DNA of 64,000 bases from an uncultured Pseudomonadota bacterium (GTDB taxonomy: Bacteria > Pseudomonadota > Alphaproteobacteria > JACZXZ01). Within the stretch, counting starts at the first letter, position 1, and every line of letters begins with the position of its first letter. Position numbers and translations under genes: made by a program. This document shows, piece by piece, positions 1,420 through 42,300 of the stretch. The stretch spans positions 896,001 through 960,000 of the forward strand of contig CAVVLJ010000017.1 of assembly GCA_963749075.1 (NCBI GenBank), read 5' to 3'. Under the pieces are notes generated by a model, which made no database searches, was not told the origin of the DNA, and worked only from the letters and a program-made list of their open reading frames with translations.

Positions 1420-4400
1420 GTGGTCAGGCGCTCGGCAAAACTCCTCGTCGAGGTGCTCGGCACGCTGGTGGCCGGCGTCGCGATCCTGGTGGCCGCGGCG
1501 GCGTGGCGCCTCTCGGCGGGGCCGATCTCGCTCGATTTCCTTACCCCCTATGTCGAGGAGGCGCTCTCCGCTCCCGACAGCAATATCAGGCTGCGGCTCG
1601 AGCACACGGTCGTGGCGTGGGGCGGCTGGCGGCGCACGCTCGATCTGGAGGCGCTCGGCGTGCACGTCCTCGATGCCGGCGGCCGGGCCCTCCTCACGCT
1701 CCCGGCAATCTCGGTGCGGCTCAGCGCGCGCGCGCTCCTCGAGGGCGTCGTGGCGCCGACCTCCCTCGACATCCGCGGCGCCCGCCTCTATCTGCACCGC
1801 GACCCGAGCGGGAAGTTCAACCTCGAGCTCGGCGACGAGTTCGCCGAGCGCGGTCAGCCCAGCGTGCTGCCGCTCATGATCAACGACATGCTGCAGCAGC
1901 CCGATCCCCAGCGGCCGATCAGCTTTCTGCGCCGGGTGAGCATCGTCAACGCCGATCTCGTGGTCGACGACAGCCACTGGGAGAACGTCCTGGAAGGCGC
2001 AGCTCGAGCGCCTGGTGCTGGAGCGCGACGTAGCCGGCGTCCACGCGGAGGCGGCGCTCGATCTCAACGTGCAAGGCACCACCACGCATTTCGACATGAG
2101 CGGGCTCTATCGCGCGGCATCGCGGACGCTCGGCCTCGAGGTCGCCTTCGCCGGGCTCAATCCCGCCGTCTTCGCCCAGGCCACACCCCAGCTGGCGCCG
2201 CTCGAGCATCTGGCGCTGCCGTTTGCCGGCAAGGTCTCTGCGGAGATCGGCATCGACGGCGCGCTCGATCTGCTGCACTTCGACGTGACCGCCGGCGAGG
2301 GCCGCCTCGTGCTCCCCGATCTCTACCCCGAGGACCTCGCGGTGAAGAGCCTTGCCGCGAAGGGCACGCTCAGCGAGCACGGCACAGCACTCGCCGTCGA
2401 GGAGGCCAACGTCGACCTCGGCGGCGCCACGTTCACCTTCAGCGGCACCGCGCGCGGCCTCGACGGCAACAGCCAGGTGGCGCTCGAGCTCACGGGCATG
2501 AACGTCAAGGTCGACGATCTGCCGAGCCTGTGGCCGGCGAGCATAGCGCCCAACCCGCGGCGCTGGATCACCGACAACCTCTCGAGCGGCACGGTCGATA
2601 CGCTCTACGTCTCGCTCCTCGCCCACGGCAGCGGCCTCGACCCGCAGACGCTGGAGACCGACCGCATCGACGGCACCATGCGGCTCTCCGGCATCAACGT
2701 GCGCTATCTCGGCAAGATGCCCAAGGTGCGCGGCACCGCCGGCACGGTGCGCTTCGACGAGAAGAGCTTCAACATCAGCATCGACAAGGGCTCGGTGCAG
2801 GGCATCGGCATCGATGCGGGGACCATCGCCATCACCGGGCTCGACCTCCACGACCAATACATCGCCATCGACCTCTCGCTTCACGGTGCGCTGCGCTCGA
2901 TGCTCCAGCTCGTCGACGACGAGCCGCTCCGCTACGCTGCGGCGCTCGGTATCGATCCCAAGAAGGTCTCGGGCGACGCCGCCGTCCGCCTTGCCTTCAA
3001 GTTCGAGCTGATCAACCAGCTGCGCTTCCCGCAAATCGACGTGCACGCCGCCGCGGACATGAAGGACGTGGCGCTGGCGTCGATCTTCCTCGGCCACGAC
3101 ATGAGCCACGGCAATCTCGCGCTCAAGGTCGGCAAGGAGGGCATGGAGATCGGCGGCACGGCAGTGCTCGGCGCCGTGCCCGTGACGCTCTCCTGGAGCG
3201 AGACGTTCGGTCAATCGCCCGAGCGCCGGATGCGCCTTGCCGGCGTGCTCGACGACAGCGCCCGCAAGGCGCTCGGCCTGGATACGGGCGAATTCCTGAG
3301 CGGACCCGTTCCGCTCGAGCTCGAGCTCAGGCGGGCGGCGCGGCGCCCAGCCGACATCGATCTCTCGCTCGACCTTGCCAAGGCAACCTTGGCGTTCCCG
3401 CGCGTCGACTGGCGCAAGCCGCCGGGCATCGCGGGCAAGGCCCACGTCAGGCTCGTCCTCGATGACGACAAGATAAGCGCCGTTCCCGACTTCTCGATCG
3501 AGGCCGGCGATTTGTCGGCGCATGGCGAGGCGCGCTTCGCGGCCGACAGCGGCCGCTTCCAGGCGCTGCGCTTCGATCGCCTGGCACTCGGCCGCGACCG
3601 GCTGAGCGGCGCCGTCACGCGCCGGACGGACGGCGTCTACGCCATCGAGCTCAACGGCGAGGCGCTCGATGCGGCAGCTTTGCTCAACGCGAAGGGCGGC
3701 GGCACGAATGAGCGCGGGCCGGCGCTTGCCGTCAAGCTCGCGGTGAAGAAGCTCTGGCTGAGCCACGCGCCGGCACCGCCGCTCGGCGCCGTCGCCGGCA
3801 CCATCGAGCTGGACGGCTCCCGCGTGGCGCGCGCGGCGCTCGACGCCCGGACGGCGGGCGGCGCGCCGTTCCACCTCGGGATCGTTCCCGCCGCCGGCAA
3901 GCGCAACGTCATCTTGAGCTGCGCAGACGCCGGAGAGCTGCTCAAGGCCGTCGACTTCGCCGACAACGTGGTGGGCGGCAAGCTCGCGCTCAGCGGGACC
4001 GCCGACGACACCAAGGCCGAGAGCCCGCTTGCCGGCACGGTGCGCGTCGCCGACTTCAAGGTGCTGCAGGCTCCCACTCTCGCCAAGCTGCTCACGCTGG
4101 CCTCGCTCACCGGCATCGGCGACAGGCTCGCGGGCAAGGGCATCCACTTCAACTCCCTCCTGGCGTCCTTCGCCAAGACGGGCGACCGCATCGAGTTCCG
4201 CGACGGCCGCACCGCCGGCTCCGAGCTCGGCGTCACCTTTGGCGGCTGGCTCGATCTCGGCAGCGACAAGCTCGCCATCGACGGCACGATCGTGCCCGTC
4301 TATTCGCTCAACAGCATCCTGGGGAACATCCCCGGCCTGAATGACATTCTGGTCGGCCCCAAGGGCGGCGGCGTCTTTGCCGCGACCTACCGGGCGTCGG

Positions 4401-4549
4401 GCAATCTCAGCGATCCCGACGTGACGGTGAACGCGCTCTCGGTCCTTGCACCGGGGATCCTGCGCGGGATCATCGATCTGATCTTCCCGGGCGGCTCCAC
4501 GGTTCCCCCGACCGAACCCTACGAGAACCCCTTCCGCGGCAGCCAGTAG
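1420..4549 (+). CDS. YhdP/AsmA-like (DUF3971/AsmA_2) envelope protein, split by a +1 frameshift at 1982-1990
   Basis: N-part (VVRRSAKLLVEVLG..RLSAGPISLDFLTPY) is in the frame of ORF 1027; C-part (ORF 2015-4549, GTIVPVYSLNSILGNIP..GGVFAATY) is in the next frame. Removing one A from AGAACGTCC joins them (HWETSWKAQLERLVLERD). Confidence 0.85.
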
Positions 4550-4655
4550 GCGGCGGAGCGGAGGGCGCTGTTCGCTTGTGGGCGTGCCGCCTTGCTTATA
4601 GGGTCGCCGAGAGCACCAGGCGCACGGGCAATCCGATCAGGGAGAAAGCCGGCCC

Positions 4656-5411
4656 ATGGACGAAGCCGCCATCCGCAAGGCAGCCGGTCTTCTCGTCGAG
4701 GCGCGGCGAACGGGAGTGCCGCTCGGCCAGCTTCCCGAGGGTTGCCATCCCGCGAGCGTCGCCGAGGCGCATGCCATCCAGGACGCGGCGGTGGCGCTCT
4801 TGGGCGAGCCCGTCGCCGGATGGAAGGTGGCGCTCGCGGGCGACGGCTCGGTGATGCGCGGGGTCATCCTGCAATCCCGGGTCTGGGAGAGCCCGGCGCG
4901 CGTGCCGGCGGCACTCGTGCCGCTGCTCGGGGTGGAGGCGGAGATCGCCTTCCGCTTCGAGCGCGACCTGCCGCCGCGGCCGGAGGCCTATGCGCGGGAG
5001 GCGGTGGAGGCGGCGGTGACCGCGATCGTGGCGATCGAGATCGTGGCCTCGCGCTTCCAAAGCTACCGCGACACGCCGCTCCTCGACCGCGCGGCGGATT
5101 TCGTCTCGAACGGCGGCTTCGTCCGCGGCACGCTGCAGCCACGCTGGCGCGAGCACGAGCTTTCCTCCCTCGAGGTGACGCTCGCCATCGACGGCGAGAC
5201 CATCGTGAGCCGGCAGGGCGGCCACCCCGCGGTCGATCCGCTCCTCCCCGCGATCGCCCTCGTCAACGAGCTGAGGCGCGGGCCGGGCGTGCGGAGCGGC
5301 CAGCTCGTGACGACCGGCACCTATAGCGGCCTCAACTTCGCGAAACCCGGGCAGAGCGTCGCGGCGAGCTTCGCCGACTTCGGCACGGCGGAAGTCCGCT
5401 TCGACGCGTGA
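4656..5411 (+). CDS. Fumarylacetoacetate hydrolase family protein (2-keto-4-pentenoate hydratase-like)
   Basis: GWKVA, GVEAEIAF, AIEIVASR, ADFVSNG and VTTGT motifs; GGGAG RBS-like sequence upstream. Confidence 0.85.
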   Translation: MDEAAIRKAAGLLVEARRTGVPLGQLPEGCHPASVAEAHAIQDAAVALLGEPVAGWKVALAGDGSVMRGVILQSRVWESPARVPAALVPLLGVEAEIAFRFERDLPPRPEAYAREAVEAAVTAIVAIEIVASRFQSYRDTPLLDRAADFVSNGGFVRGTLQPRWREHELSSLEVTLAIDGETIVSRQGGHPAVDPLLPAIALVNELRRGPGVRSGQLVTTGTYSGLNFAKPGQSVAASFADFGTAEVRFDA

Positions 5412-5435
5412 GTGCCGCGTCCCGTCCGCCGGCGG

Positions 5436-5573
5436 CTAATCGGCGAAGCCCAAGAGCCCTGGCAGCGCGAGCGTGAACCAGGGGACGAAGGCCACCACCA
5501 GCAGGTCGAGCAGCAGCACCAGCACATAGGGGATCATGATGCGCGAGGCGCGCTCCATCGGCGCGCGCGCCGC
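5436..5573 (-). pseudogene. Orphan C-terminal fragment of a TRAP large permease (DctM)
   Basis: ARAPMERASRIMIPYVLVLLLDLLVVAFVPWFTLALPGLLGFAD* resembles the last TM helix of DctM; no upstream remainder of the gene is present. Confidence 0.65.
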
Positions 5574-5680
5574 CGCACCGCGGCGGCAAGGGCGCCCGCG
5601 AGCATGTACGGCCCTCCTGACGGCCACATTCGGACTGAGGACAGGACATGCTTGACCGCGGCCCGAAGCGTCACCTGGAA

Positions 5681-5717
5681 TTCTCCATTAGTGAATTGTC
5701 GTTCTGGTATACTGAAC
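5681..5717 (+). promoter_or_regulatory. Two tandem IclR-type operators overlapping an extended -10 promoter
   Basis: TTCTCCATTAGTGAA (5681-5695) and TTCTGGTATACTGAA (5702-5716) are both TTC-N9-GAA and 21 bp apart; TGnTATACT at 5705-5713; ATG at 5719 with no SD. Confidence 0.6.
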
Positions 5718-5718
5718 C

Positions 5719-6490
5719 ATGTATTCCAGCCTCGCCCGCGGAATTGCGGCGCTCGAGATCCTGGCGCAGGGAGGCGGGCCGCTCGGCCTCGCTGAAATCG
5801 CTCGGCGGCTTCAGAACGTCCAAATCGGGCATGCATGGGTTGCTGGCCGCTCTTGTCCGCTGCGGCTGCGTCAATCGGACTTCGGGCGGTTTCTATTCTC
5901 TCGGTCTCAAGGCCTGGGAGATCGGGCGAACGGTGCCGACCGCGCGCCTCGTGCAGGCCGCCGCTCCCGTCATGGAACGGCTCGCCGCGCAAGTGAATGA
6001 CGGCGTGATCCTCGGTGTCTTGAACGGCTTCGACGTTGTGTACGTGCATCTGGTCGGAAGCCCGCAGGCGGTCCGCATCCATGCGGAAGTGGGACAACGG
6101 ATACCGGCGCACTGCACGTCGACGGGTCTGGCCCTGCTCGCCTTTCGCGAGCCGGGCTACCTCGAGCGGGTCCTGCCCAAGCGCCTGCCGGCGCCGACGG
6201 AGGAGACCATCAGCGAGCCGGACCAGTTGCGTCGGGAGCTCGAGCGCGTCCGCGCGCGCGGCTATGCGCTCAACCGCGGCGGCTGGCGTTCGGACGTTGG
6301 CGGCATCGCGGTGCCGATCAAGGCAAATCCGGCATTCGGGTCGGCCGGCCTGTGCATTGCCGTGCCGCGCTATCGCATGACGCGGCAATGGATCAAGGCC
6401 GCTGCCGCCGACTTGGCCGATGCAGCTGCCGCGATCGCCGCGGCCTTGGCGCTTCCGCCGGGCCCGCTCGGGCTGGCAGCCGCCTCATGA
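5719..6490 (+). CDS. IclR family transcriptional regulator, split by a +1 frameshift at 5813-5821
   Basis: HTH start MYSSLARGIAALEILAQGGGPLGLAEIARRLQ (ORF 5719) continues as TSKSGMHGLLAAL...PAHCTSTGLALLA...VRARGYA in the frame of ORF 5648. Confidence 0.88.
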
Positions 6491-8547
6491 GTGCGCCGAA
6501 TGGCGGCTGGCGCATCGGCGTCGATGTCGGCGGAACCTTCACCGACCTCGTCTTGGCCGGACCCGGACAGGGATTTCGCGTCTTCAAAGTGCCGTCGGTT
6601 CCGGCAGATCCGAGCCAGGGCGTGCTGAGCGCGCTTGACAGGGCCGCCGAGGCCGAAGAGCTGCCGATCCGCGAGCTCCTCGGCCGCTGCACGCTGTTCG
6701 TCCATGGTTCGACGATCGCCACCAATACGGTGCTCGAAGGCAAGGGGGCGCGCGTCGGCATGCTCGCGACGGCTGGATTTCGCGACGCCGTGGAAATTCG
6801 CCGCGGCGCGCGCGACGATCCGTGGGACCATCGGACTCCCTACCCGCCGGTCCTCGTGCCGCGCTATCTGCGGCTTCCGATCCGGGGGCGGATCGACGGC
6901 AAGGGGCGCGAAGTGGAGCCGCTGGCCGCGGATGAAATTCCAGCGGCGCTCGAGGTCTTTCGCAACGAGAGCGTCGAAGCGGTGGCCATTTGCCTTTTCA
7001 ACAGCTTCGCCAATCCCGCCCATGAGCGCGAAGCCGCCAAGAGACTCGAAGGCTTTGCCAACGGGTTCGTATCGCTCTCGAGCGAGATCTCGCCGATCAT
7101 GGGAGAATACGAACGCTCGTCGACCGCCGTTCTGAATGCCTATGTCGCTCCCCGCACCCTCTCCTACCTTCGCTCCCTCAACGGGCGGCTCGGCGAATTG
7201 GGGCTCGGCTCGCCGCTCTTGCTCATTCAAAGCAACGGCGGCGTCGTCTCCGTGGCGGAGCTCGGCGATCGGCCGGTCACCCTGCTTCTGTCGGGGCCGG
7301 CTGCGGGTCGCGGCGCCCTGCAATATTACAGCGGGGCGATCGGCTCCACGGACCTCGTGTCGATGGAGATCGGCGGCACCAGCTGCGACGTCATCCTGAT
7401 GAGCCAAGGCGAGGTCGCCTTCACGGACATGCTCGATATCGGCGGCTACAAGTGCGCGAGTCCTGCGATCGAGGTCCATACGATCGGCGCGGGAGGCGGC
7501 ACCATCGCGCGCGTGGATGCGGCGGGTCTGCTTCAGGTCGGCCCGAAAGGTGCGGGTGCCTACCCGGGCCCGGCCTGTTACGGCCTCGGCGGCAGCGATC
7601 CCACCATCACCGACGCTCAAGTCGTGCTTGGGCGACTGAAGTCGGGCTCGTACGCCGGCGGTGCGATGACGATCGACGGCGGATTGGCGGCCAAAGCGAT
7701 CGAAGAAGCGATTGCAGCTCCGCTCGGGCTGTCGCTCGAACGGGCGGCGGCCGGCATGATCCAGCTCATGGAGCAGAAGCTGCTTCACGCCGTCCAGCGC
7801 GTCAGCACGGAGCGCGGCCACGACCCGCGCCGACTGACCCTGGTCGCAGCAGGGGGTGCGGGCCCTCTGCATGCCGCGGCCGTATCCCGCGCGCTCGGCT
7901 GCTCGCGGGCCTACGTTCCGCGCCTGTCCGGGGCGTTTTGCGCGCTCGGCATGCTGCACGCGGACGTGCGCCACGACTACCTTCGCATGTTCATCGAGAA
8001 GCTCCACGGCGCGGACGCGGACGCGGTCGAGACGATATTTCGCGAGCTCGAGGAGCAGGCGACCGCGGCACTGGCGCGCGAGGGATTCGCCCAAGTCGAC
8101 ATGCGCCTCGCCCGCGCGCTCGACCTCCGTTACATAGCCCAGCAATGGGATATTACGGTCCCCTTGGGCACGGCCTTCGACCCGGCCGTCGTTCGCCGCG
8201 ATTTCGAGCTGGAGCATGACCGCTTGTTCGGTCATACCCAGCCCGGCGGAGCGATCGAAATCACGAAGCTCCGGATGAGCGGCTTCGGGCGGATTCCCCG
8301 TCTCCAGCAAGTCGAGGCCCCGCGCGCCACGGCGGACCCCCAACCGACCGAGCATCGCCGCGTCTGGATCGACGGCCGGACCGACTGGTGCGAGACGCCG
8401 GTCTACGACGGCACGCGGCTCCAAGCCGGAAACGTCATCGCCGGCCCCGCCGTGATCGACGAGACGACGACGACGCTGCTGCTGGGCAAAGGCGACCGGC
8501 TCACGGTCGATGCAAGCGGCAATTACAGCATCGAGATTTCGAGGTAG
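6487..8547 (+). CDS. Hydantoinase/oxoprolinase subunit A (ATP-binding)
   Basis: IGVDVGGTFTD, HGSTIATN, LSGPAAG, EIGGTSCDV, TIGAGGG and GPACYG motifs; ATGA overlap with iclR. Confidence 0.93.
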   Translation: MSAPNGGWRIGVDVGGTFTDLVLAGPGQGFRVFKVPSVPADPSQGVLSALDRAAEAEELPIRELLGRCTLFVHGSTIATNTVLEGKGARVGMLATAGFRDAVEIRRGARDDPWDHRTPYPPVLVPRYLRLPIRGRIDGKGREVEPLAADEIPAALEVFRNESVEAVAICLFNSFANPAHEREAAKRLEGFANGFVSLSSEISPIMGEYERSSTAVLNAYVAPRTLSYLRSLNGRLGELGLGSPLLLIQSNGGVVSVAELGDRPVTLLLSGPAAGRGALQYYSGAIGSTDLVSMEIGGTSCDVILMSQGEVAFTDMLDIGGYKCASPAIEVHTIGAGGGTIARVDAAGLLQVGPKGAGAYPGPACYGLGGSDPTITDAQVVLGRLKSGSYAGGAMTIDGGLAAKAIEEAIAAPLGLSLERAAAGMIQLMEQKLLHAVQRVSTERGHDPRRLTLVAAGGAGPLHAAAVSRALGCSRAYVPRLSGAFCALGMLHADVRHDYLRMFIEKLHGADADAVETIFRELEEQATAALAREGFAQVDMRLARALDLRYIAQQWDITVPLGTAFDPAVVRRDFELEHDRLFGHTQPGGAIEITKLRMSGFGRIPRLQQVEAPRATADPQPTEHRRVWIDGRTDWCETPVYDGTRLQAGNVIAGPAVIDETTTTLLLGKGDRLTVDASGNYSIEISR

Positions 8548-10295
8548 TGCCGGTGCCCCACGCCGACCCCATCACGCTTGCGCTCGTGCAGAATCGGCTG
8601 GACCAGATCGCCAAACAGATGGGCTGGGTCATGGTGCGCACGTCGCGCAGCCCGATCTTCAATCAGTCGCACGATTTTTCCTGCTTCATCACCGATGCCA
8701 AAGGCACGATCGTCTCGCAGGCCGACGGCATTCCGATCCATACGGGCGGCGGCGGATTTGCCGTGCGGGCACTGATCGCGGCTTTCGCAGGCGGCATCGC
8801 CGAGGGCGACGCGTTCTTGCTCAACGATCCCTACGTGGCCGGCGGCAACCATCTCCCCGACTGGGTCGTGGCGCGCCCGGTCTTTGCCGAGGGAATGCTC
8901 CTCGCCTTTGCTTGCAACCGGGCGCATCAGTCCGACATCGGCGGGGGTGCCGCGGGAACCTACAATCCGCAGGCGACCGAGATATTCCACGAGGGCATCC
9001 GGTTGCCGCCGCTGAAGCTGATCGAGGAGGGCCGCGCGCGCGACGACCTCTGGCAGCTCCTGATGATCAATTCGCGCTGTCCGGATTTGCTGGACGGCGA
9101 TCTCCGCGCGATGCTCGGCGCCACGCGGGTCGGCGTCGAAGAGATCAGGCGCATCGCGGGCGATTTCGGCCCGCTCGAGACGGCCGCCCTTTTCGGCGAA
9201 ATCCTCGATCATGCCGATAGGCGCCTGCGATCCGCCATCTCGGAGCTTCCCGACGGGACCTACCGTGCCGAGGAACGCTTCGACAACGACTGCTTCGTCA
9301 ACGTGAAGGTCGCCTTGCGCATGACGCTCACGAAGACCGCGGACCGCATGGTCGTCGATTTCACCGGCACGGACCCCCAGATCCGCGGCTTCAAGAATTC
9401 CTCGCTCGCCAACACCTATTCGGCCGTCTATGCCGGCATCGCCTCGTTCTTCGACAGCGACCTCCCGCGCAACGAGGGCACGTTCCGGAGCGTATCGATC
9501 ATCGCGCCGCGCGGAACGGTCGTGAATGCGATGGCTCCAGCGGCGCTCACCATGTGCACGGTCTTCCCGGCTCACGAGATCATGCATATGGTCTGGTGGG
9601 CGTTGGGTCAGGCCGATCCGAAACGCGCCATCGCCGGATGGGGGAAAAACGTCTTTCCGGTCACCTCCGGCCGCGACGCCGATAGCATGACCTGGGTCAT
9701 GTACAATTGGGGCGGCAACTCCGGGGCCGGCGCGGTCGAAGGGCGCGACGGCTTCAATCAGATGGGGCCCATGGTCACGCTCGGCGGCCTCGTCATTCCC
9801 AATGCCGAAACCTACGAGCAGCTCTACCCCATCACGGTGCGCCGCCACGAGCTGCGCACGGACGGCGGCGGGCCGGGCCGCTATCGCGGCGGCACCGGAG
9901 TGGCCTACGAGGTCGACGTGCATTGCCCGGCCGAATACTCCTTCCGCGGCGAGGGCGTCACGCGGCCAACTGGGCTCGGCGTGGAGGGCGGGCGAGCGGG
10001 CTCCGCCGGCGAGGTGCGGATCACCCAAGCGGACGGCGCATCGCGCACCCCCGATCCCTATTGTCTCTGGGCGCTCCCACCGGTGCGGCTGTCGATCCTG
10101 TCCTCGGGCGGCGGCGGCTTCGGGGATCCCCTCGCCCGGCCGGTCGATCTGGTGGTGCGCGACGTGCGCGATGGACTGGTGAGCTGGGAAGCAGCCGAGA
10201 CGGAGTACGGGGTCGTGCTGTCGGCCGACGGCCGGTCAGCGGACGGCGCCGCCACCCGACAACTAAGGCAGACGAGGTGCGCAAACCTCAATTGA
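8547..10295 (+). CDS. Hydantoinase B/oxoprolinase subunit B
   Basis: DFSC, NDPYVAGGNHLPD, HQSDIGG, EIFHEGIRLPP and GGGGFGDP motifs. Confidence 0.93.
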   Translation: MPVPHADPITLALVQNRLDQIAKQMGWVMVRTSRSPIFNQSHDFSCFITDAKGTIVSQADGIPIHTGGGGFAVRALIAAFAGGIAEGDAFLLNDPYVAGGNHLPDWVVARPVFAEGMLLAFACNRAHQSDIGGGAAGTYNPQATEIFHEGIRLPPLKLIEEGRARDDLWQLLMINSRCPDLLDGDLRAMLGATRVGVEEIRRIAGDFGPLETAALFGEILDHADRRLRSAISELPDGTYRAEERFDNDCFVNVKVALRMTLTKTADRMVVDFTGTDPQIRGFKNSSLANTYSAVYAGIASFFDSDLPRNEGTFRSVSIIAPRGTVVNAMAPAALTMCTVFPAHEIMHMVWWALGQADPKRAIAGWGKNVFPVTSGRDADSMTWVMYNWGGNSGAGAVEGRDGFNQMGPMVTLGGLVIPNAETYEQLYPITVRRHELRTDGGGPGRYRGGTGVAYEVDVHCPAEYSFRGEGVTRPTGLGVEGGRAGSAGEVRITQADGASRTPDPYCLWALPPVRLSILSSGGGGFGDPLARPVDLVVRDVRDGLVSWEAAETEYGVVLSADGRSADGAATRQLRQTRCANLN

Positions 10296-10302
10296 CAGGG
10301 AG

Positions 10303-11397
10303 ATGGCAATGACCAAGCGAACGGCGTTCAACCGGAGCCTGCTCAAGGCGGCATGCTGCGCACTGCTCTCTGTCGGCACCGTCGGCTGGGCAACGATGCC
10401 CGGCAGCCGTGCCGACGAGCTTCCCGTGAGCGACAAGATCCCGGCAGCGGTGACCAAGATTCGAGTCATGACCTACAACGGCGCCTACACGTCGCTGCCT
10501 GCGCACATCGCCAAGGACCTCGGCTTCTACGCAAAATACAATCTCGACGCCGAGCTGACCGTGGTGAATTCCGGACCGGCCGGCGTCGCCGCCCTGCTCG
10601 GCGGAAGCCTCGACTTCATCGAACCGCCGACCGATCAGATCATCGAGAACCAGATCAAGGGAACCGACCTCAAGATCGTCGTCGGCAACGAAATAAAGAA
10701 CTTCTTCAATCTCATCGTATCGGCCAAGGTGCCGCTTCCGCACGCCGGCAAGGGCTATCCGGAGGTCATGCATGACCTCAAGGGCCTGCGCATCGGGGTC
10801 AACGCCCTCGGCGCGAGCACGCACCTGATGATGAACGCGCTCCTCAAGGGTGCCGGGATGACGCCGGACGACGTGACCTACGCCGCCGACGGCTCGTCGA
10901 ATACGGCGCTTGCCGCCTGGCAAGCGGACCGCATCGATGCCCAGATGGCCTTCACGCCGTTTCCCGAAATCATCCAGGCGCTGGGTACCGGGCGGTCGGC
11001 CATCGACCTCAGCAACGGACAGGGACCGGCGATCCTGCAGAAGCTCGGCGCGGCATTCGAGGATTTCTCGGCAAAGGGCTCCTACATCCGCGAACACCCG
11101 GATGTCGTGAACGCCTTCATCAAGGCGCATGTCGATGCGATCGACTGGATCAAGAATCCGGCCAACCGGGGCAAGCTGGCCGAGGAGGTCGGCAGCTACG
11201 TGAATACGGCGATCATTCCTGCGGACAAGCGGAGCGAAACCGTGGGCTTGATGATCGACAACTACAACCGCTACTTCGGCTATACGGTCGACCGCGGGGC
11301 CGTCGATGCGTGGAATCAATACCTCATCGAGAATCAGCTGATTCCGCATGCGGTGGACGCGGCGGACGTCATCTATGCAGGGGCGCCGAAACCTTGA
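10303..11397 (+). CDS. ABC transporter substrate-binding protein, SsuA/THI5-like (NitT/TauT family)
   Basis: Signal peptide; GFYAKYNLDAEL, AALLGGSLDF and DLKGLRIGV motifs; GGGAG RBS. Confidence 0.85.
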   Translation: MAMTKRTAFNRSLLKAACCALLSVGTVGWATMPGSRADELPVSDKIPAAVTKIRVMTYNGAYTSLPAHIAKDLGFYAKYNLDAELTVVNSGPAGVAALLGGSLDFIEPPTDQIIENQIKGTDLKIVVGNEIKNFFNLIVSAKVPLPHAGKGYPEVMHDLKGLRIGVNALGASTHLMMNALLKGAGMTPDDVTYAADGSSNTALAAWQADRIDAQMAFTPFPEIIQALGTGRSAIDLSNGQGPAILQKLGAAFEDFSAKGSYIREHPDVVNAFIKAHVDAIDWIKNPANRGKLAEEVGSYVNTAIIPADKRSETVGLMIDNYNRYFGYTVDRGAVDAWNQYLIENQLIPHAVDAADVIYAGAPKP

Positions 11398-12194
11398 GCA
11401 GCGAGACGGACGACGCCGGCGGGATTCTGATCGAGGGTGTGGTCCACTCCTACCGGAGCTCGCGAGCGCACCTGCCGGCACTCGATCGCATCTCTCTTAC
11501 CATCAGGCGCGGCGAGTTCGTCGCATTGGTGGGGCCGAGCGGCTGCGGCAAGACGACGTTGCTCGACATCTTGAGCGGCCTCATCCGGCTGCAGCAGGGC
11601 CGCGTGCTCTTGGCCCACGCTCCGCCCGCCGCCGGGCGCCGCGACACCGCCCGCATGTTCGCCCGGGACGCGCTCTTGCCGTGGCGGACGGCTTACGCCA
11701 ACGTGGATTTCGCCCTCTCGACGCGGAATCCGGACAGTCTCCGGCGCCGCACCATCATTCAATCCATGCTGCAGGACGTGGGCCTCGAGGGCTTCGAAAA
11801 CGCATATCCGCGAAAGCTCTCGCAGGGCATGCGGCAACGCGTGGCGTTGGCAAGGACGTTTTCGTTGGAGAGCAGTTTCATCTTCCTCGACGAGCCCTTC
11901 GGCGCCCTCGACGCACAGACGAAACTGGTGCTGCAAGACAAACTTCTGCACCTCTGGGAGAAATTCCAAAGCACGGTCGTTCTCGTCAGCCACGATCTGG
12001 CCGAGGCCGTGGCGCTGGCCGATCGCGTCGTCGTCATGTCCTCGCGACCCGGGCGCATCGCCGCCGACGTGTCGATCGCCCTCCCGCGACCGCGGTCCGT
12101 GGCCGCCCTGCAAAGCATGAGCGCATTCCACGATCTCTATTCCCGGCTGTGGCGGGAGCTCGAACGGGCGACGGGCGCAGTCGCGGGAGCGTGA
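11394..12194 (+). CDS. ABC transporter ATP-binding protein (NitT/TauT)
   Basis: Walker A GPSGCGKT, signature LSQGMRQR, Walker B FLDEPF. Confidence 0.92.
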   Translation: MSSETDDAGGILIEGVVHSYRSSRAHLPALDRISLTIRRGEFVALVGPSGCGKTTLLDILSGLIRLQQGRVLLAHAPPAAGRRDTARMFARDALLPWRTAYANVDFALSTRNPDSLRRRTIIQSMLQDVGLEGFENAYPRKLSQGMRQRVALARTFSLESSFIFLDEPFGALDAQTKLVLQDKLLHLWEKFQSTVVLVSHDLAEAVALADRVVVMSSRPGRIAADVSIALPRPRSVAALQSMSAFHDLYSRLWRELERATGAVAGA

Positions 12195-12195
12195 A

Positions 12196-13017
12196 TTGGC
12201 AAGGCCGACGACCGATGAGCCGCTCGAGCCGGGTTCGCCGCCAGGCGACGACGTCGGCCGATGGCACAAGGGGATGCCCATCCTCCTCGGGCGCCTCATC
12301 GTGCTTTTGGTATTTCTCGGCGCTTGGGAGGGATTGGCGCGTACGAACGCGATTCCGGCGGCGTTCATCGGGCAACCCTCGAAGTTCCTGCCGTTTCTCG
12401 CCGCTCAGCTCTGGAACGGAACAATTCCCCGCGCCGCCGTCGATACGCTTTCGGCCACCCTGACGGCCTTTGCGGTGGGCGGCATTCTCGCACTGGCGAC
12501 GGCGCTTGCACTCGCGGTTTCTCCGCTATTGAAGGCCTTGATCGACCCCTATATCGACGCGCTGAACGCCCTGCCGCGGGTGGCTCTCGTTCCGCTGTTC
12601 ATCGTCTGGTTCGGATTGGGGACATTGTCCAAAGTCGTTTCCGGCGTCTCCCTCATGTATTTCATCCTGCTCTACAACACGATTGCCGGCGCCCAATCGG
12701 TCGACCCTGATCATCTTCAACTCGCGCGCAGCCTCGGGCTGCCGCAAAGGCAGGTCTTTCTCCGCATCGTGATCCCGACGGCCGTGCCGTCCATTTTCGT
12801 AGGCCTCAGGCTCGGCCTCGTCTATACGCTGCTTGGCGTCGTGACCGCGGAGCTGATCGCCGGCGGAAAGGGTCTGGGCAGCCTGATCAGCTATTATTCC
12901 AACACCTTCGATGCGAACGGCGTTTTTGCGGTGCTTCTCGTGTTGATCGTGGTGGCCGACGTGCTCTCCATGATCATGACCAGGATCGAGCAATGGCTCA
13001 CGCGCTGGAACAGATAG
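12196..13017 (+). CDS. ABC transporter permease (NitT/TauT)
   Basis: Multiple TM helices; LPRVALVPLFIVWFGLG; EAA-like loop LARSLG; AELIAGGKGLG. Confidence 0.9.
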   Translation: MARPTTDEPLEPGSPPGDDVGRWHKGMPILLGRLIVLLVFLGAWEGLARTNAIPAAFIGQPSKFLPFLAAQLWNGTIPRAAVDTLSATLTAFAVGGILALATALALAVSPLLKALIDPYIDALNALPRVALVPLFIVWFGLGTLSKVVSGVSLMYFILLYNTIAGAQSVDPDHLQLARSLGLPQRQVFLRIVIPTAVPSIFVGLRLGLVYTLLGVVTAELIAGGKGLGSLISYYSNTFDANGVFAVLLVLIVVADVLSMIMTRIEQWLTRWNR

Positions 13018-13050
13018 GGGCCGGGAGAGAGAGACGCCGCCCGGTGCGGG

Positions 13051-14301
13051 ATGGAGGACTCCAAGATGACTTCGCTGCCGAAGACCGGAAGATCATGGGA
13101 TGAGCTTGACCGCGAGATGGATGCCGCCGCAGCAGGCGATGTCGATTGGCGGCATGGCCGGCTCGGAGTCTATATCCATTATGCGGGCGACGACGTTCTC
13201 GAGGTGGCGAAGAAGGCTTATCTGAAGTTCTTCTCCGAGAACGGCCTCGGGCCCAAGGCCTTCCCAAGTTTGGCGCGGTTCGAGAGCGACGTTGTGGCCA
13301 TGACGCTCGGCCTGCTGCACGGCGGACCCGATGCGCGCGGTGCCATGACGACGGGCGGAACCGAAAGTATCTTTCTTGCGGTCAAATCGGCGCGCGATCG
13401 TGCGCGCCTCAAGCATCCGACCCTGGATCGGCCGCAGATCGTCGTGCCGAGAACGGCGCATCCGGCGTTCAACAAGGCAGCCCACTGGCTCGGGCTCGAG
13501 GTGCTTCGCGTTCCCGTCGGCAAGGATTTCCGGGCCGATGTGGAGGCCATGGCAGCCGCGGTCGGGCCGCGGACGATCATGCTCGTAGGCTCGGCGCCGG
13601 CCTTCCCTCACGGCGTCATGGATCCGATTCCCGAGCTCGGGACCCTTGCCGAAAATCATGGACTGTGGCTGCACGTCGATGCCTGCGTCGGCGGCTTCAT
13701 CGCACCCTTCGCGAAGCGTCTCGGCAATCCGCTTCCCGACTTCGATTTTGCCGTACCGGGCGTCGTCTCGATTTCCGCCGATCTGCACAAATACGGCTAC
13801 ACAGCGAAGGGCGCCTCGACAATCCTCTACCGCAACAATGAGGCGTTTGGATTTCAGGCCTATACGTTTTCCGATTGGCCGCGCGGCACATATGCGACGC
13901 AGACGCTGGTGGGCACGCGGCCGGGCGGTGCCATCGCGGCGGCCTGGGCGGTGATGAATTTCCTCGGCGAAGAAGGATACCTCGAGGTGACCCGCCGCAT
14001 CCTCGCGACAAGGAAGGCCATTGGCGACGGCGTCGCAAAGCTCGGGCTCGAGGTCTGGGGAAAGCCCGAGCTCAGCATCGTCGGCTACGGCTCGCGCGAG
14101 CTCGACATGGCTGCCGTTGCGGACCGCCTGGCCTCCCGCGGCTGGTTCGTGGGACGGCTGGCCGAGCCGCCGGGCATTCACCTCATGCTCAATCTCACCC
14201 ACGAGGCCATCGTCGGAGACTATTTGAGCAACCTCGAATGGTCGATCGGTGAGGTCCGCGCCGGCCGGGCGCGATCGACGATCTCGCAAGCGACCTATTG
14301 A
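13051..14301 (+). CDS. PLP-dependent group II decarboxylase/aldolase, sphingosine-1-phosphate lyase-like
   Basis: TTGGTESI, HVDACVGGF, SISADLHKYG (PLP Lys) and GTRPGGAIAAAWA motifs. Confidence 0.85.
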   Translation: MEDSKMTSLPKTGRSWDELDREMDAAAAGDVDWRHGRLGVYIHYAGDDVLEVAKKAYLKFFSENGLGPKAFPSLARFESDVVAMTLGLLHGGPDARGAMTTGGTESIFLAVKSARDRARLKHPTLDRPQIVVPRTAHPAFNKAAHWLGLEVLRVPVGKDFRADVEAMAAAVGPRTIMLVGSAPAFPHGVMDPIPELGTLAENHGLWLHVDACVGGFIAPFAKRLGNPLPDFDFAVPGVVSISADLHKYGYTAKGASTILYRNNEAFGFQAYTFSDWPRGTYATQTLVGTRPGGAIAAAWAVMNFLGEEGYLEVTRRILATRKAIGDGVAKLGLEVWGKPELSIVGYGSRELDMAAVADRLASRGWFVGRLAEPPGIHLMLNLTHEAIVGDYLSNLEWSIGEVRAGRARSTISQATY

Positions 14302-14369
14302 GCGCGAGCGGGCTGACCCTGCCGCTCGACATTCAGGGCGGCGCTGCAACACGGCGTTGGAGGGCACCG

Positions 14370-15725: not shown

Positions 15726-15827
15726 TCCAAGGCACCGGCAATAGAACGCTGGTGCGGCCCTAAATGGCGAGTTAACGCGCCAATGCCGCGAGACCGGCGA
15801 GAAAGGCCGCCCCGGCCCGCCGGCGGC

Positions 15828-17081
15828 TCAGCCGAGCCTGACGAGGGCGTGGCGCTTCCTGCCGTGGGAGAGCTTGATGACGCCCTCGGCCGTGAGGTCG
15901 GCCAAGGTGAGCTGGCGCATCTCGTCGCCGACCACGGCATCGTTCACGCGCACGGCACCCTCGCGGATCTTACGGCGCGCGTCGCTGTTGCTCGCGGCGA
16001 GCCTGGCCTCGACGAGCGCCTGAAGGAGCGGCAGCCCGGAGGCGAGTGCCGTCCGGCTCACCGCGGCCTCGGGCAGCGCGTCGCCGAAGCGGCCCTCGAC
16101 AAAGGTGAGCCGCGCGGTCGCCGCCGCCGCCTTGGCCGCCGCCGCGCCGTGGCAGAGCGCAGTCGCCGCATCGGCGAGCACGGTCTTGGCCTCGTTGACG
16201 GCGCTGCCGGGGAGCGCCTCGAGCCGGGCGATCTCGTCGAGCGGGAGCTCGGTGAAGAGGCGGAGGAAGCGCCCCACGTCGGCGTCGTGCGTGTTGCGCC
16301 AGAACTGCCAATAGTCGTAGGCGCTGAGCATCTCGGCGTTGAGCCACACGGCGCCCGCCGACGTCTTCCCCATCTTGGCGCCCGAGGCGGTCGCGATGAG
16401 CGGGGTGGTGAGCGCGAAGAGCTCGCGGCCGTCGGCGCGGCGGGCGAGCTCGACGCCGTTCACGATGTTGCCCCACTGGTCGGAGCCGCCCATCTGCAGC
16501 GCGCAGCCATGGCGCCGGGCAAGCTCCAGGAAGTCGTAGGCCTGCACCACCATGTAGTTGAACTCGAGGAAGGAGAGCGGCTGCTCGCGCTCGAGCCGCA
16601 GCTTGACGCTGTCCATGGAGAGCATGCGGTTGACCGAGAAGTGCCGGCCGATGTCGCGCAGGAACGGGATGTACTCGAGCCGGTCGAGCCACTCCGCGTT
16701 GTCGACCATGAGGGCGTCGCCCGGGCCCCGGCCGAAGACGAGGAACTTCTCGAAGACGGCCTTGATGCTCGCCATGTTGGCGGCGATGTCGGCCTCGCTC
16801 AGGAGCTTGCGCACCTCGTCCTTGCCGGAGGGATCGCCGACCTTGGTGGTGCCGCCGCCCATGAGCACGATCGGCCTGTGCCCGCTCTTCTGGAAGTGGC
16901 GCAGCAGCATGACGCCGACGAGGTTGCCCACGTGGAGGCTCGGCGCCGTGCAGTCGAAGCCGATGTAGGCGACGACGGGACCGCCGGCCAGGCGCGCGTC
17001 GAGCGCTGCGGGATCGCTGATCTGGTGGACGAACCCGCGCTCCGTGACGGTCTTGAGAAAGGCGGAGCGGAACTCGGTCAT
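15828..17081 (-). CDS. tyrS: Tyrosine--tRNA ligase
   Basis: [15 protein letters not shown] (HIGH-like), [10 protein letters not shown] and KMGKT motifs; C-terminal S4 domain. Confidence 0.97.
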
Positions 17082-17217
17082 GGGCCTGCTGCAAAGGGAA
17101 GCGGCGGGCGTCATTGCCCGGTTGCCGGAAGCGCCGTGCTTTAGCACAATCGACCGCAAGGGACAACGCCGCGGCAGCCGGTGCGGCGGGCGCCGGATGG
17201 GCGGACGAGAGGCAAGC

Positions 17218-18309: not shown

Positions 18310-18327
18310 GCGCTGTGAAGATTTGCA

Positions 18328-29835: not shown

Positions 29836-29846
29836 GCTTCCCCCCT

Positions 29847-36759: not shown

Positions 36760-37332
36760 TTGGCGGTATTGTTGCGATTGAGCGGCCTGATCGACGCGCT
36801 CAACGAGCGGATCGGGAAGCTCTTCTATTGGCTGGTCCTGGGTGCCGTCCTGGTGAGCGCGGGAAACGCCCTCGTGCGCTACACCTTCGATACCAGCTCG
36901 AATGCCTGGCTCGAGCTGCAGTGGTACATGTTCTCCGCCATCTTCGTGCTGTGCTCCGGCTATACGCTGCTGCGCAACGAGCACATCCGCATCGACATCG
37001 TCAACAGCCGCTTCCCCAAGCGGGTGCAGATCTGGATCGACATCATCGGCGGCATCGTCTGCCTCCTGCCCATGACGCTGATCATCATGGTTCTGTCGTG
37101 GCCGATCTTCGTCGATTCCTTCATGCGCCATGAGGTGTCGTCCAACGCCGGCGGCCTCTTGCGCTGGCCGTTCAAGCTGATCGTGCCGGTCGGCTTCTTC
37201 CTGCTGGCCCTCCAGGGCGTCTCCGAGATCGTCAAGCGCATCGCCTACCTCAAGGGCCTGGCTCCCGACCCGACCGAGCGGATCCACGCCCACGGCGCCG
37301 AATCTCCGTCCGGGCCGGCGCCCTCGCCGTGA
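36760..37332 (+). CDS. TRAP small permease DctQ (copy 1)
   Basis: ELQWYMF and EHIRIDIV; 4 TMs. Confidence 0.9.
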   Translation: MAVLLRLSGLIDALNERIGKLFYWLVLGAVLVSAGNALVRYTFDTSSNAWLELQWYMFSAIFVLCSGYTLLRNEHIRIDIVNSRFPKRVQIWIDIIGGIVCLLPMTLIIMVLSWPIFVDSFMRHEVSSNAGGLLRWPFKLIVPVGFFLLALQGVSEIVKRIAYLKGLAPDPTERIHAHGAESPSGPAPSP

Positions 37333-38957
37333 GCCAGTTCCTCATCGCCAATATGGCGCCGCTCATGTTCGCGGCGCTCGTGGTGGGCCTCCTCATCGGC
37401 TACCCGGTCGCCTTCTCGCTGGGTGCGGTTGGCCTCTCCTTCGGCTTTCTCGGCATCAAGCTGGGCTTGCTCAATTTCACGCTTCTGCAGGCGCTGCCCG
37501 AGCGCGTGATCGGCATCATGAGCAACGACACGCTGCTCGCGATCCCGTTCTTCACCTTCATGGGCCTCATCCTCGAGCGCAGCGGCATGGCCGAGGACCT
37601 GCTCGACACCATCGGCCAGCTCTTCGGCCCGTTGCGCGGCGGGCTCGCCTATGCGGTGATCTTCGTAGGCGCCCTCCTCGCCGCCACCACCGGCGTGGTG
37701 GCCGCCTCGGTCATCTCGATGGGCCTCATCTCGCTGCCCATCATGCTGCGCTACGGCTACGACCGGCGCGTGGCCGCAGGCGTCATCGCCGCCTCGGGCA
37801 CGCTCGCCCAGATCATCCCGCCGAGCCTCGTGCTCATCGTCATGGCCGACCAGCTCGGCCGCTCGGTCGGCGACATGTACGAGGGCGCCTTCATCCCGGG
37901 GCTCACGCTCGCGGCGCTCTATGCCGTCTATGTCTTCGTCGTCTCGCTTCTGCGGCCCGAGGCGGTTCCGGCGCTGCCGCGCGACGCCATCACCGTGCGC
38001 GACGAAAACGGCGGGGTGGGCTATGCCTCGCTCGGCGCCATCGTCGCGGCGGCGGTCGCCTGCGGCTATCTTCTCAGCGGCTACATGCACGCGATCTGGG
38101 CTTGCGCGCTTGCCGGGCTCGCGGCCTATCTCGCAGCACTCGCCGACAAGCTGCTGCGGCTGGGGCTCCTCAGCCTGCTCGCCCGCCAGGTCGTCATCGT
38201 GATGATGCCTCCCCTCTCGCTCATCTTCCTCGTGCTCGGCACCATCTTCGTCGGCATCGCCACGCCGACCGAGGGGGGTGCGATGGGGGCGTCGGGCGCG
38301 CTCGCCCTGGCGCTCGCCAACCGCCGCCTTACCTGGAGCCTGCTGCGCCAGGCCATGGACACGACGGCCAAGATCTCCTCCTTCGTGCTCTTCATCCTGA
38401 TCGGCTCGACCGTCTTCAGCCTCGTCTTCCGCGGCGTCAACGGCGACCTCTGGGTCGAGCACATGCTGACCAACCTGCCCGGCGGGCAAGTGGGCTTCCT
38501 CATCTTCGTCAATTTTTTCGTCTTCTTCCTCGCCTTCTTCCTCGACTTCTTCGAGCTCGCCTTCATCGTCATTCCGCTCCTGGGGCCGGTCGCGGAGAAG
38601 CTCGGCATCGACCTCATCTGGTTCGGCGTGCTGCTCGGCATCAACATGCAGACCTCGTTCATGCATCCCCCATTCGGCTTCGCGCTCTTCTACCTGCGCA
38701 GCGTGGCGCCCAGCCGGGCCTTCACCGACAAGGTCACCGGCAGGCTCACGGAGCCCCTGACGACCGGCCAGATCTACTGGGGCGCCATCCCGTTCGTCTG
38801 CATCCAGCTGGTCATGGTCGGGCTCGTCATCGCCTTCCCGGCGCTCGTGCTGTCGGCACTCGGCGGCGGCCCGAAGATCGACCCCAACAAGGTCAAGATC
38901 GAGATCCAGACCCCGCAATCGGATCAGGGCGAGATCCCGCAGTTCAACATCAAGTGA
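37329..38957 (+). CDS. TRAP large permease DctM (copy 1)
   Basis: GYPVAFSL, GTLAQIIPPS, TPTEGG and QTSFMHPPFGF motifs. Confidence 0.93.
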   Translation: MSQFLIANMAPLMFAALVVGLLIGYPVAFSLGAVGLSFGFLGIKLGLLNFTLLQALPERVIGIMSNDTLLAIPFFTFMGLILERSGMAEDLLDTIGQLFGPLRGGLAYAVIFVGALLAATTGVVAASVISMGLISLPIMLRYGYDRRVAAGVIAASGTLAQIIPPSLVLIVMADQLGRSVGDMYEGAFIPGLTLAALYAVYVFVVSLLRPEAVPALPRDAITVRDENGGVGYASLGAIVAAAVACGYLLSGYMHAIWACALAGLAAYLAALADKLLRLGLLSLLARQVVIVMMPPLSLIFLVLGTIFVGIATPTEGGAMGASGALALALANRRLTWSLLRQAMDTTAKISSFVLFILIGSTVFSLVFRGVNGDLWVEHMLTNLPGGQVGFLIFVNFFVFFLAFFLDFFELAFIVIPLLGPVAEKLGIDLIWFGVLLGINMQTSFMHPPFGFALFYLRSVAPSRAFTDKVTGRLTEPLTTGQIYWGAIPFVCIQLVMVGLVIAFPALVLSALGGGPKIDPNKVKIEIQTPQSDQGEIPQFNIK

Positions 38958-38999
38958 GGCGTCGCCGGGCGGGGAGCGCGGCGCCGCCTGCCAGAAACG

Positions 39000-39025
39000 G
39001 AAAGCCCCGCCGGAGCGGGGCTTTC
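39000..39025. terminator. Likely bidirectional intrinsic terminator
   Basis: GAAAGCCCCGC-cgga-GCGGGGCTTTC between convergent dctM and dctP. Confidence 0.75.
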
Positions 39026-39055
39026 GCTTGCCATCGCGGCCGCGCGCGGCAGCGC

Positions 39056-40162
<1,107 letters not shown>

Positions 40163-40259
40163 GTCATCCTCCCTGGTTTCGCTTCTGTTGTTCATTCATG
40201 TAGCAGATATGATACACCGTTGACAATGATTTGACAGTCTACAGCCGCCGGAGAGCGGA

Positions 40260-40781
40260 GTGACCCAGAGGGAGCGCATCGTCGCAGCGATCGACAGCTT
40301 CGTCGACTGGACCGGGCGGGCGGCCTCGTGGCTCATCCTCGCGGTCGTCGCTCTCCTTTTCCTGCAGATCCCCATGCGCGAGTTCGCCCACTTCGGGCAC
40401 AACGAGGTGAACGACATCGGTCAGCTCTGCCATGCCGCCGTGTTCATGATCGGCGTCGCCTACGCCATGCGCTGGGACGCGCACGTGCGCGTCGACATCT
40501 TCTACGGCCGCCTGAGCGCGCGGCGGAAGGCGCTCATCGACCTCCTCGGCACGCTCTTCTTCGTGCTGCCCTGGCTCTTCATCGTGACGCGCGACTCGAT
40601 CCCGATCGTGGTCAATTCCTGGCGCGAGCTCGAGGCCTTCGCCGAGACCTATACGCCCGGCTACTTCCTCCTCAAGACCCAGCTCCTCGTCTTCGCGGCA
40701 CTCGTGGCGCTCGCGGCGACTGCCAACATCCTGCGCGACCTCGGCACGCTCGCCAGGACGGCCGCGCAGAAGCGCCGATAG
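40260..40781 (+). CDS. TRAP small permease DctQ (copy 2)
   Basis: AHVRVDIFY; 4 TMs. Confidence 0.88.
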   Translation: MTQRERIVAAIDSFVDWTGRAASWLILAVVALLFLQIPMREFAHFGHNEVNDIGQLCHAAVFMIGVAYAMRWDAHVRVDIFYGRLSARRKALIDLLGTLFFVLPWLFIVTRDSIPIVVNSWRELEAFAETYTPGYFLLKTQLLVFAALVALAATANILRDLGTLARTAAQKRR

Positions 40782-40787
40782 CCGCGC

Positions 40788-42300
40788 ATGAGCGCCACGC
40801 CCGCCGAGGCCCTCGGACTCTCGATGTTCGGCGCGGTTTTCGTCCTCCTCATGTTCGGCTTTCCCGTCGCCTTCACCCTCATCGGCACCGCCGTCGCCTT
40901 CGCCTTCCTCGGCCACGCCCTCGGGCTCTTCGACCTCCAGCTCCTCTCGGCGCTGCCGCTCCGCATCGTCGGCCTCATGGACAACGACCTCCTGCAGGCG
41001 ATCCCGCTCTTCCTCTACCTCGGCGTGGTGCTGCAGCGGACGACGCTCGCCGCCGATCTGCTCGAGGGGCTCGCGGCGCTCTTCGGCCGCCGAGCCGGCG
41101 GGCTCGCGATCGCGACCGTGCTCGTCAGCATGCTCCTGGCCCCGACCACGGGCGCCGTCGGCGCCACGGTGCTGACCATCGGCCTCCTGGCCCTGCCGAG
41201 CATGCTGGCCGCCGGTTACGACCACAAGCTCGCCGCCGGCATCATCTGCAGCGCCGGCACGCTCGGCACCATCATGCCGCCCTCGATCGTGCTCATCCTG
41301 CTCGGCGATTTCATGCAGCACGCCAACATCGAGGCGCAGCTCGCGCGCGGCAAGGCGATCGCCTCGGCGATGACCGTCCAGGACGTTCTACCTGGGTGCG
41401 GTGGTGCCGGTCGGGCTGCTGCTGGCGCTCTATCTCGGCTTTGTGGTGCTGGTCGCGGTCGCGGCGCCCAAGCGCTGCCCGCCGGCTGAGGCGCAGCTCG
41501 AGCGGCGGCGCTCGCCGCTCCGCCTCTTTGCCACCATCCTGGCGCCGTTGACGCTTCTCGTGACCATGCTGGCGCTGATCATCAGCGGGCTCGCCTATAC
41601 GGTCGAAGCGGCGGCGAGCGGCGCCGTGGCCGCGACGCTCTATGCGCTGGCGCGGCGCGAGCTCAACCTGGCGCGCCTCGCCGAGACGCTCCGCCTCGTG
41701 CTCAAGCTGACCGCCATGGTGTTCATGCTGCTGATGGGCGCCTCGACCTTCTCGCTCGTCTTCCGCGGTTTCTCCGGCGACGTCTTCGTAGCACACCTCC
41801 TCTCCGGCGTTCCCGGCGGCGTGATGGGAGCGACGGCCACGGTGATGGCGATCATGTTCGGGCTCGCCTTTTTCCTGGACGCGCTCGAGATCATCTTTCT
41901 GGCGGTACCGATCGCCATGCCGCCTTTGCTCTTCCTCGGTGCCGACCCGGTCTGGCTCGCCATGTTGACCGCGATTAACCTGCAAACCGCCTTCCTTCAT
42001 CCGCCTTTCGGCTTTGCGTTGTTCTTCCTGCGCGGCGTCGCGCCGAAGGAGGTCACCACAAGCGAGATTTACCTCGGCGTCATCCCCTTCATCGCCATCC
42101 AGATCGTGGTCTTGGCGCTCGTCTGGAGCCATCCCCGCCTGGTGACGGCGTTGCCCGAGCGGTGGAACCGGGAGGCGGCCGCCGCAAGCGCCGTGGCGCG
42201 CCACGCGCCCGGGCGGCCCGGCACGCCCGAGGGCGGCCTGCCGGCGCCGAGCTACGGCGGCCCCGACCAGGTGCCGCTCGAGCTGCGCCGGCCGCCATGA
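40788..42300 (+). CDS. TRAP large permease DctM (copy 2), split by a +1 frameshift at 41381-41389
   Basis: ORF 40788 (GTLGTIMPPS) and ORF 41401 (QTAFLHPPFGF) join as VQDVYLGAVVP when one T of GGACGTTCT is removed. Confidence 0.88.

Follow-up and report, generated by a model that had tools for sequence, protein, structure and literature searches.

Recurrent nanopore errors have been tied to methylated motifs and can be used to recover the motif, according to the parts of PMC10687267 and PMC12392509 drawn on here; that of the former concerns mainly mismatches, with the motifs GCAGC and GCTGG, and that of the latter gives GATC and GANTC, with CcrM in Brucella, as error-associated motifs. Methylation-motif-associated errors in Oxford Nanopore bacterial assemblies are also described in 10.1101/2023.09.15.556300, again as far as the part used here goes. 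For the hexamer GACGTC, M.AatII methylates the A, as shown by single-molecule real-time (SMRT) sequencing in the part of PMC3287169 consulted. We present here the analysis of a 64,000-nucleotide stretch (the window) of contig CAVVLJ010000017.1, from the genome assembly of an uncultured Pseudomonadota bacterium (GCA_963749075.1), in which three genes break at copies of AGAACGTCC, a 9-mer that contains GACGTC with an extra A. The extra A is very probably a consensus error of the assembly at true GACGTC sites, which are most likely methylated.

The errors at this motif resemble the Oxford Nanopore errors in the parts of those papers cited above in recurring at one short motif throughout a genome and in being absent from independent data. 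There the motif is the specificity of a methylase, which here would hold for two side motifs only, and most of the errors described are substitutions, unlike the prominent one-base insertions and frameshifts found here beside G-to-A substitutions. With AatII-type modification, as far as the cited part describes it, the locus shares the hexamer, and the surplus A falls at the adenine methylated by M.AatII; in GACTC it likewise coincides with the adenine targeted by CcrM. No homologue of the AatII system was identified, with neither the M.AatII nor the R.AatII sequence at hand for comparison. GACGTC as an error motif was not met in a limited literature search that took in parts of papers and excluded supplements, and we make no claim that it is unpublished.

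Results

AGAACGTCC occurs three times in the window against 0.32 copies expected, a number reached in 0 of 100 shuffles. As the original prediction had it, all three copies are the exact points of a +1 frame change, the same 9-mer lying on one strand or the other of a YhdP-family gene, an IclR-family regulator gene and a DctM gene. The features are as follows, with X1 and X2 denoting two public soil-metagenome runs of a single study, from which contigs were derived.

1420..4549, + strand: YhdP-family gene, assembled in two frames, start not fixed (PF13116 match on 1985-4546; translations)
1982..1990, + strand: AGAACGTCC in the YhdP-family gene, one A of 1984/1985 judged spurious (frame +1, five relatives, X1 and X2 contigs)
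5719..6490, + strand: IclR-family regulator gene split by the surplus base (Pfam pieces, translations)
5813..5821, + strand: AGAACGTCC in the IclR-family regulator gene, one A judged spurious (X1 contig, Pfam pieces)
40788..42300, + strand: tripartite ATP-independent periplasmic (TRAP) transporter DctM gene split by the surplus base (Pfam split, translations)
41381..41389, - strand: AGAACGTCC (GGACGTTCT on the + strand) in the DctM gene, one T of 41386/41387 judged spurious (frame +1, one relative, Pfam split)

In the YhdP-family and DctM genes, third-position guanine-plus-cytosine (GC) content jumps by one frame (+1) at the motif. For the IclR gene the evidence of a break comes from the Pfam pieces and the read-derived contigs, the GC profile there being too weak to reveal a shift. 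The Pfam match of the YhdP family (PF13116) lies downstream of 1985. HTH_IclR matches over 1-28 of its 52 profile positions as far as 5814, beyond which IclR_C occupies the next frame, and the DctM profile is divided into 1-180 to the left of 41386 and 171-412 to its right. All three genes are on the + strand, and the motif is sense in two of them and antisense in the DctM gene, as first described.

Related genomes of the same genus lack the extra base at two of the sites. Five of them (72-74% identical) are one base shorter than the YhdP-family gene between TGGGA and TCCTGG, which confines the surplus to GAACG versus CACC. At the DctM site, the window has CAGGACGTTCTACC against CAGGACA-TCTACC in one genome (89% identical over this part), confining the surplus to GTT versus AT. 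None of the five same-genus genomes matched at the IclR site.

The contigs of runs X1 and X2, which hold 0.66 and 0.30 of the sampled words, were aligned to positions 1-20000 of the window, so that 1984 and 5815 are covered. X1 pieces of 786-4,220 bases match the window with 0-1 other letters, the eight listed pieces amounting to 12,271 bases. The surplus base is absent at 1984 at full depth in both runs (6.74 of 6.74 in X1 and 4.1 of 4.1 in X2) and at 5815 in X1 (5.26 of 5.26), and these two are the sole indels in the near-identical contigs. The only full-depth substitutions in the near-identical pieces are those at 2408 and 13293, given below; other listed changes are in contigs of other organisms.

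2408..2413, + strand: AACGTC where the contig has GACGTC, the substitution form (A>G at 2408, X1 6.74 of 6.74; context ccAACGTCg)
13288..13293, - strand: GACGTT on the + strand (AACGTC on the - strand) where the contigs have GACGTC (T>C at 13293, X1 9.95 of 9.95, X2 3.1 of 3.1; context GACGTTg)

All four differences in the near-identical X1 contigs restore GACGTC, three of them in the eight listed pieces and the fourth in the 5815 contig, which is outside these. Seven true GACGTC sites are covered by the contigs; four are mis-written in the assembly and three (7387, 11365 and 12250) agree. That the same sites also suffer G-to-A substitution, giving AACGTC, had been missed in the original prediction. 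In-frame GAACGTC at 2500, 3202, 13192 and 15438 is unchanged in the contigs; therefore genuine GAACGTC also exists. A third run, X3, holds almost none of the stretch, and its aligned contigs belong to other organisms. The contigs of X1 and X2 are the strongest evidence for an artefact. Mapping of short or amplified reads had been proposed at the outset; the comparison with read-derived contigs covers two of the three sites, 1984 and 5815, and finds the surplus base absent at both. The three genes are to be treated as intact.

The genome comprises 5.49 Mb in 23 contigs with a GC content of 68%, a completeness of 96.3% and a contamination of 5.15%. Each genome position was labelled by the best coding frame on either side, using a codon log-odds score trained on long open reading frames (ORFs), and all k-mers were scanned without bias for association with frame changes (16,384 tests for 7-mers). 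Among 7-mers, GAACGTC/GACGTTC ranked first for association with +1 changes (46 of 757 sites, p 1.4e-25); the remaining high-ranking k-mers at +1 changes were signals common where a stop and a start overlap, ATGA and TGAGC among them. In a strict test, removal of one base had to give an open frame of 360 bases that carried coding signal left and right of the site, with the following results.

GAACGTC: frame reopened at 50 of 339 classifiable sites (14.7%)
Random positions: 77 of 9,584 (0.8%)
Ten control variants of GACGTC (either an added internal base or a single flanking base): 0-1.0%
GACGTC itself: 2 of 624

The 50 frameshift sites are divided evenly between sense and antisense relative to the gene (25 each) and lie on the + and - contig strands in 21 and 29 cases. 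An event-based scan limited to changes with no stop nearby found GAACGTC in 47 of 187 unique +1 events versus 1 of 69 unique -1 events. Counting the motif against frameshifted genes genome-wide, as had been suggested, thus gave a clear enrichment (GAACGTC 14.7%, random positions 0.8%).

Genome-wide, there are 39 copies of AGAACGTCC versus 97 of AGACGTCC. Nineteen of the 39 were classifiable, with 7 frameshifts and 12 intact copies; the IclR site is too near the gene start for classification. The base following AGAACGTCC is G at 2 of the 7 classified frameshift sites, contrary to the original view that A or T must follow a broken motif. The error per half-site depends on the preceding base (A 4.7%, C 2.2%, G 0.8% and T 0.3%) and reaches 10-28% with CTC, CGA or CCA upstream. 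The unit of error is GACGTC, and the flanks only modulate the rate; the extent first proposed, AGACGTCCW, is too long. The double-insertion form, GAACGTTC, occurs 24 times.

The GACGTC/CTGCAG ratio is 0.64 here versus 1.05-1.37 in five same-genus genomes, and the AACGTC/CTGCAA ratio is 1.28 versus 0.98-1.14. As a rough indication across different species, these ratios fit the conversion of a large share of GACGTC into (G)AACGTC. False frameshifts at GAACGTC number no fewer than 50 in this genome; as only about 45% of GAACGTC sites are classifiable, the true figure is probably near double. AACGTC occurs at 2,214 sites, and false G-to-A substitutions at GACGTC sites probably number some hundreds.

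Gene pieces adjoining 20 of the 50 frameshift sites were scanned for families, and 2 of the 20 had no family match. One piece, with its end at C16:1332579, belongs to DNA gyrase subunit A (965.6 bits versus a cut-off of 902, profile 2-600 of 798). In a whole-genome search gyrA was found once, with profile positions 1-600 and 603-797 in different frames around GACGTTC at that position, and the sole other match in the genome is below the cut-off.

C16:1331844-1334475: gyrA, single copy, split in two frames, break at C16:1332579

The motif also cuts glnE (profile 15-716 of 986), the acetate-CoA ligase gene acs (profile 7-348 of 649), boxB (BoxB) and a RegB-type kinase gene. All these lesions together cannot occur in a living cell.

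Once GAACGTC was removed, GAACTC stood out at +1 events, with 34 rows (27 unique events) versus 4.6 expected, and it reopened the frame in the strict test at 36 of 1,452 sites (p 7e-9). GAACTC is GACTC with an added A, and GANTC covers GACTC and three other forms; in the same genome-wide tests GAAGTC, GAAATC and GAATTC showed no enrichment at +1 events. GANTC is the specificity of CcrM, and a 358-amino-acid protein encoded in the genome matches the CcrM model end to end with 609.8 bits, below the strict cut-off of 830.

AGAATC occurs in 10 +1 events versus 0.58 expected, followed by T in 6, C in 3 and G in 1. In the strict test the counts were 7 of 85 for AGAATCT, 4 of 63 for AGAATCC, 1 of 44 for AGAATCG and 0 of 27 for AGAATCA. 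AGAATCT and AGAATCC are AGATCY with an added A, so that the errors fall only in the A-preceded half of RGATCY, which we take to be the specificity of BstYI. A 203-amino-acid protein matches BstYI (PDB 1SDO) over its full length with an E value of 2.3e-88.

C17:655231-656778 (L058:5232-6778), outside the window: BstYI-like pair, a PF01555 methylase (312 amino acids) overlapping the start of the 203-amino-acid endonuclease gene

The pair resembles the BstYI system in its end-to-end endonuclease match, its overlapping methylase gene and the error motif AGATCY plus A, the specificity of this copy being predicted; it is unlike BstYI's RGATCY in that only the A-preceded half carries errors here, and the system lies outside the window. 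From their sequences, then, GAACTC would fit CcrM and GANTC, and AGAATCY the BstYI-like system, a match of two error motifs with predicted modification systems encoded in the genome. GAACTC and AGAATC together account for at least 37 further false frameshifts. Removal of the three motifs leaves 103 (+1) and 62 (-1) unique events located more than 30 bases from any stop. No strong motif was found among these +1 events; homopolymers are not dominant, and their length is no explanation. Some of the remaining frame changes are ordinary gene junctions, like two found in the window.

Methylase genes and other features

The genome-wide search for methyltransferases that accompanied the original prediction as a proposal returned the CcrM homologue and the BstYI-like system, and tied none to GACGTC. 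The other methylase genes found, which are the unassigned candidates for GACGTC, are these.

C2:140945-142030 (L024:6946-8031), - strand: DPPY-motif orphan beta-class amino-methylase, 361 amino acids, TDPPYG, native GC content, downstream of an amidase gene
C21:482033-486771 (L026:4034-8772): 50-53% GC island with a PF01555 methylase (336 amino acids, L026:5002-6012), an integrase, an HATPase_c_3 protein and a ResIII helicase
C17, L058:6887-8035, - strand: D12-class methylase, 382 amino acids, beside the BstYI-like pair
C16:949887-951296 (L059:5888-7297): C5 cytosine methylase and Vsr genes, located behind an 892-amino-acid KaiC-like ATPase in an island of 51-58% GC
Four large proteins (997-1,160 amino acids) and a 316-amino-acid frame: PF02384 matches, the fifth being weaker

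The orphan methylase on C2 is a candidate for the GACGTC mark. No endonuclease gene was found near it, and a 500-amino-acid ORF beside it was rejected as a candidate endonuclease because it is an antisense shadow of the amidase gene. Apart from BstYI, the neighbours of the candidate methylases gave no endonuclease match. Those of the other methylases included a weak DndB match (below the cut-off), HATPase_c_3, the ResIII helicase, the KaiC-like ATPase and Vsr, none assignable to GACGTC.

The HATPase_c_3 protein of the C21 island has 529 amino acids and weak matches to MzaB and to BbrUII/HgiDII-type enzymes; the island may serve in defence, or may be foreign DNA or contamination. The BstYI-like pair is on a 55-60% GC island, where the D12-class methylase and a weak DndB-like ORF adjoin it. 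The C5 methylase gene on C16 is likewise broken in the assembly, at cgcGAACTCgat (GAGTTC, C16:950433), an error of the CcrM type.

In the window, there are 14 GAACGTC/GACGTTC sites, with frameshifts at 3 only, and 10 intact GACGTC sites; no frameshifts were found in the window beyond the three sites. A single intact in-frame AGACGTCC is present, as originally noted, and one further site lies at a gene junction.

43837..43844, - strand: intact AGACGTCC, in frame, single copy (sequence and frame inspection)
61757..61763, - strand: GACGTTC where one minus-strand gene stops and the next starts, an ordinary junction (stop codon closing ORF 61762-63123; next ORF from GTG 61754)

The simple frame classifier had called a +1 shift at 61757, which was dropped in favour of a stop/start junction, the next ORF having a plausible N-terminus; same-genus genomes cover one side of it only. 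Frame changes at 20675 and 37300 were likewise dropped as frameshifts and are ordinary gene junctions. Because these three proved to be junctions, the stricter tests were relied on, not the simple classifier. The region 37300-42300 contains two DctM-type permease genes in tandem regions, one from near 37330, after the end of a DctQ-like gene, and the broken one at 40788-42300.

Discussion

In the mechanism proposed here, GACGTC would be methylated in this bacterium, with a precedent in the N6-methyl group placed on A by an AatII-type methylase. The modified site would disturb the signal read by the basecaller or polisher, and the 5' flank would set the frequency of failure. On this reading, true GACGTC was written in the long-read consensus as GAACGTC, gaining an A (a T when seen from the opposite strand), or alternatively as AACGTC, with G read as A; inside a gene, the surplus base produces an apparent +1 frameshift. 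The same process would leave weaker traces at GACTC, within the CcrM motif GANTC, and at AGATCY, within the BstYI-type motif RGATCY. We infer modification as the cause of the error at GACGTC, and likewise the modified base and the platform, nanopore being a guess from the type of error. Since two error motifs coincide with encoded modification systems, modification is the likely cause.

Real mutation, through a site-specific hotspot or the decay of GACGTC in this strain, would make the broken genes true pseudogenes. GACGTC is rarer here than in kin, as expected under site loss, and the X1 and X2 contigs could in principle stem from a sister strain. This explanation is nevertheless very improbable: it would truncate the sole gyrA and no fewer than 50 further genes, every change consists of one and the same surplus A, the base is already absent from contigs at two sites, and the near-identical contigs (12,271 bases listed) hold only four differences, all at the motif, unlike strain divergence. 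The original prediction had ranked a systematic long-read error above a real mutation, and the genome-wide, strand-independent pattern, the split in the single gyrA and the contigs without the base at two of three sites bear this out. The chance of programmed +1 ribosomal frameshifting or transcriptional slippage at AGAACGTCC is close to negligible. The two sense cases do share a codon phase, xAG AAC GTC C, which speaks for it; the antisense motif in the DctM gene and at 25 of the 50 sites already refutes it, DNA without the surplus base exists in the runs, and no slippery run or stimulatory element is involved. Recoding had been considered unlikely from the start, and the even split between sense and antisense sites and the contigs without the surplus base agree.

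A systematic error of the basecaller or polisher could also arise from plain sequence context around GACGTC with no DNA modification. The strong dependence of the error rate on the unmodified 5' flank (10-28% after CTC, CGA and CCA, 0.3% after T) favours such an explanation, as does the fact that no methylase is assigned to GACGTC and no modification signal was seen. We regard it as quite unlikely, given that the three error motifs share no sequence relationship beyond GA, that two of them coincide with the encoded CcrM/GANTC and BstYI-like/RGATCY systems, and that published nanopore studies, in the parts used here, tie recurrent errors to methylated motifs (PMC10687267, PMC12392509). The restriction to GACTC within GANTC and to AGATCY within NGATCN fits motif-specific marks seen through a context filter. 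There is also a small but real chance that GACGTC carries a modification handled much worse by the basecaller than CcrM methylation is: a mark other than AatII-type N6-methyladenine, such as another methylated position or a bulkier modification, placed by an unassigned orphan methylase or an island-borne system. About half of true GACGTC is mis-written (4 of 7 in the aligned stretch; a deficit of about 40% versus kin), compared with about 1-3% of GACTC.

Several points weigh against a consensus error at methylated GACGTC. The DctM site (41381) rests on one relative at 89% identity and the Pfam split, and part of the GACGTC deficit versus kin could be natural site avoidance. X1 and X2 may not be short reads, and one of the runs may be the data behind the genome; they show an independent k-mer assembly without the base, not the content of each read. 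No encoded methylase is assignable to GACGTC among the candidates found, and no AatII-like endonuclease was recognised among their neighbours, the libraries searched having no known profile for one. BstYI-type methylases probably modify C, not A; therefore the modified base may lie elsewhere than at the surplus A.

The value of the finding is practical rather than biological. Annotation of the present assembly will report false pseudogenes, gyrA, glnE and acs included, and false changes of the Asp-to-Asn type. The error pattern gives a simple cleaning rule for this and similar assemblies, and the split gyrA is a clear marker for any re-polished version of the genome. For the organism itself, the pattern is a read-out of probably modified motifs, GACGTC, GANTC and RGATCY, of which two agree with encoded systems.

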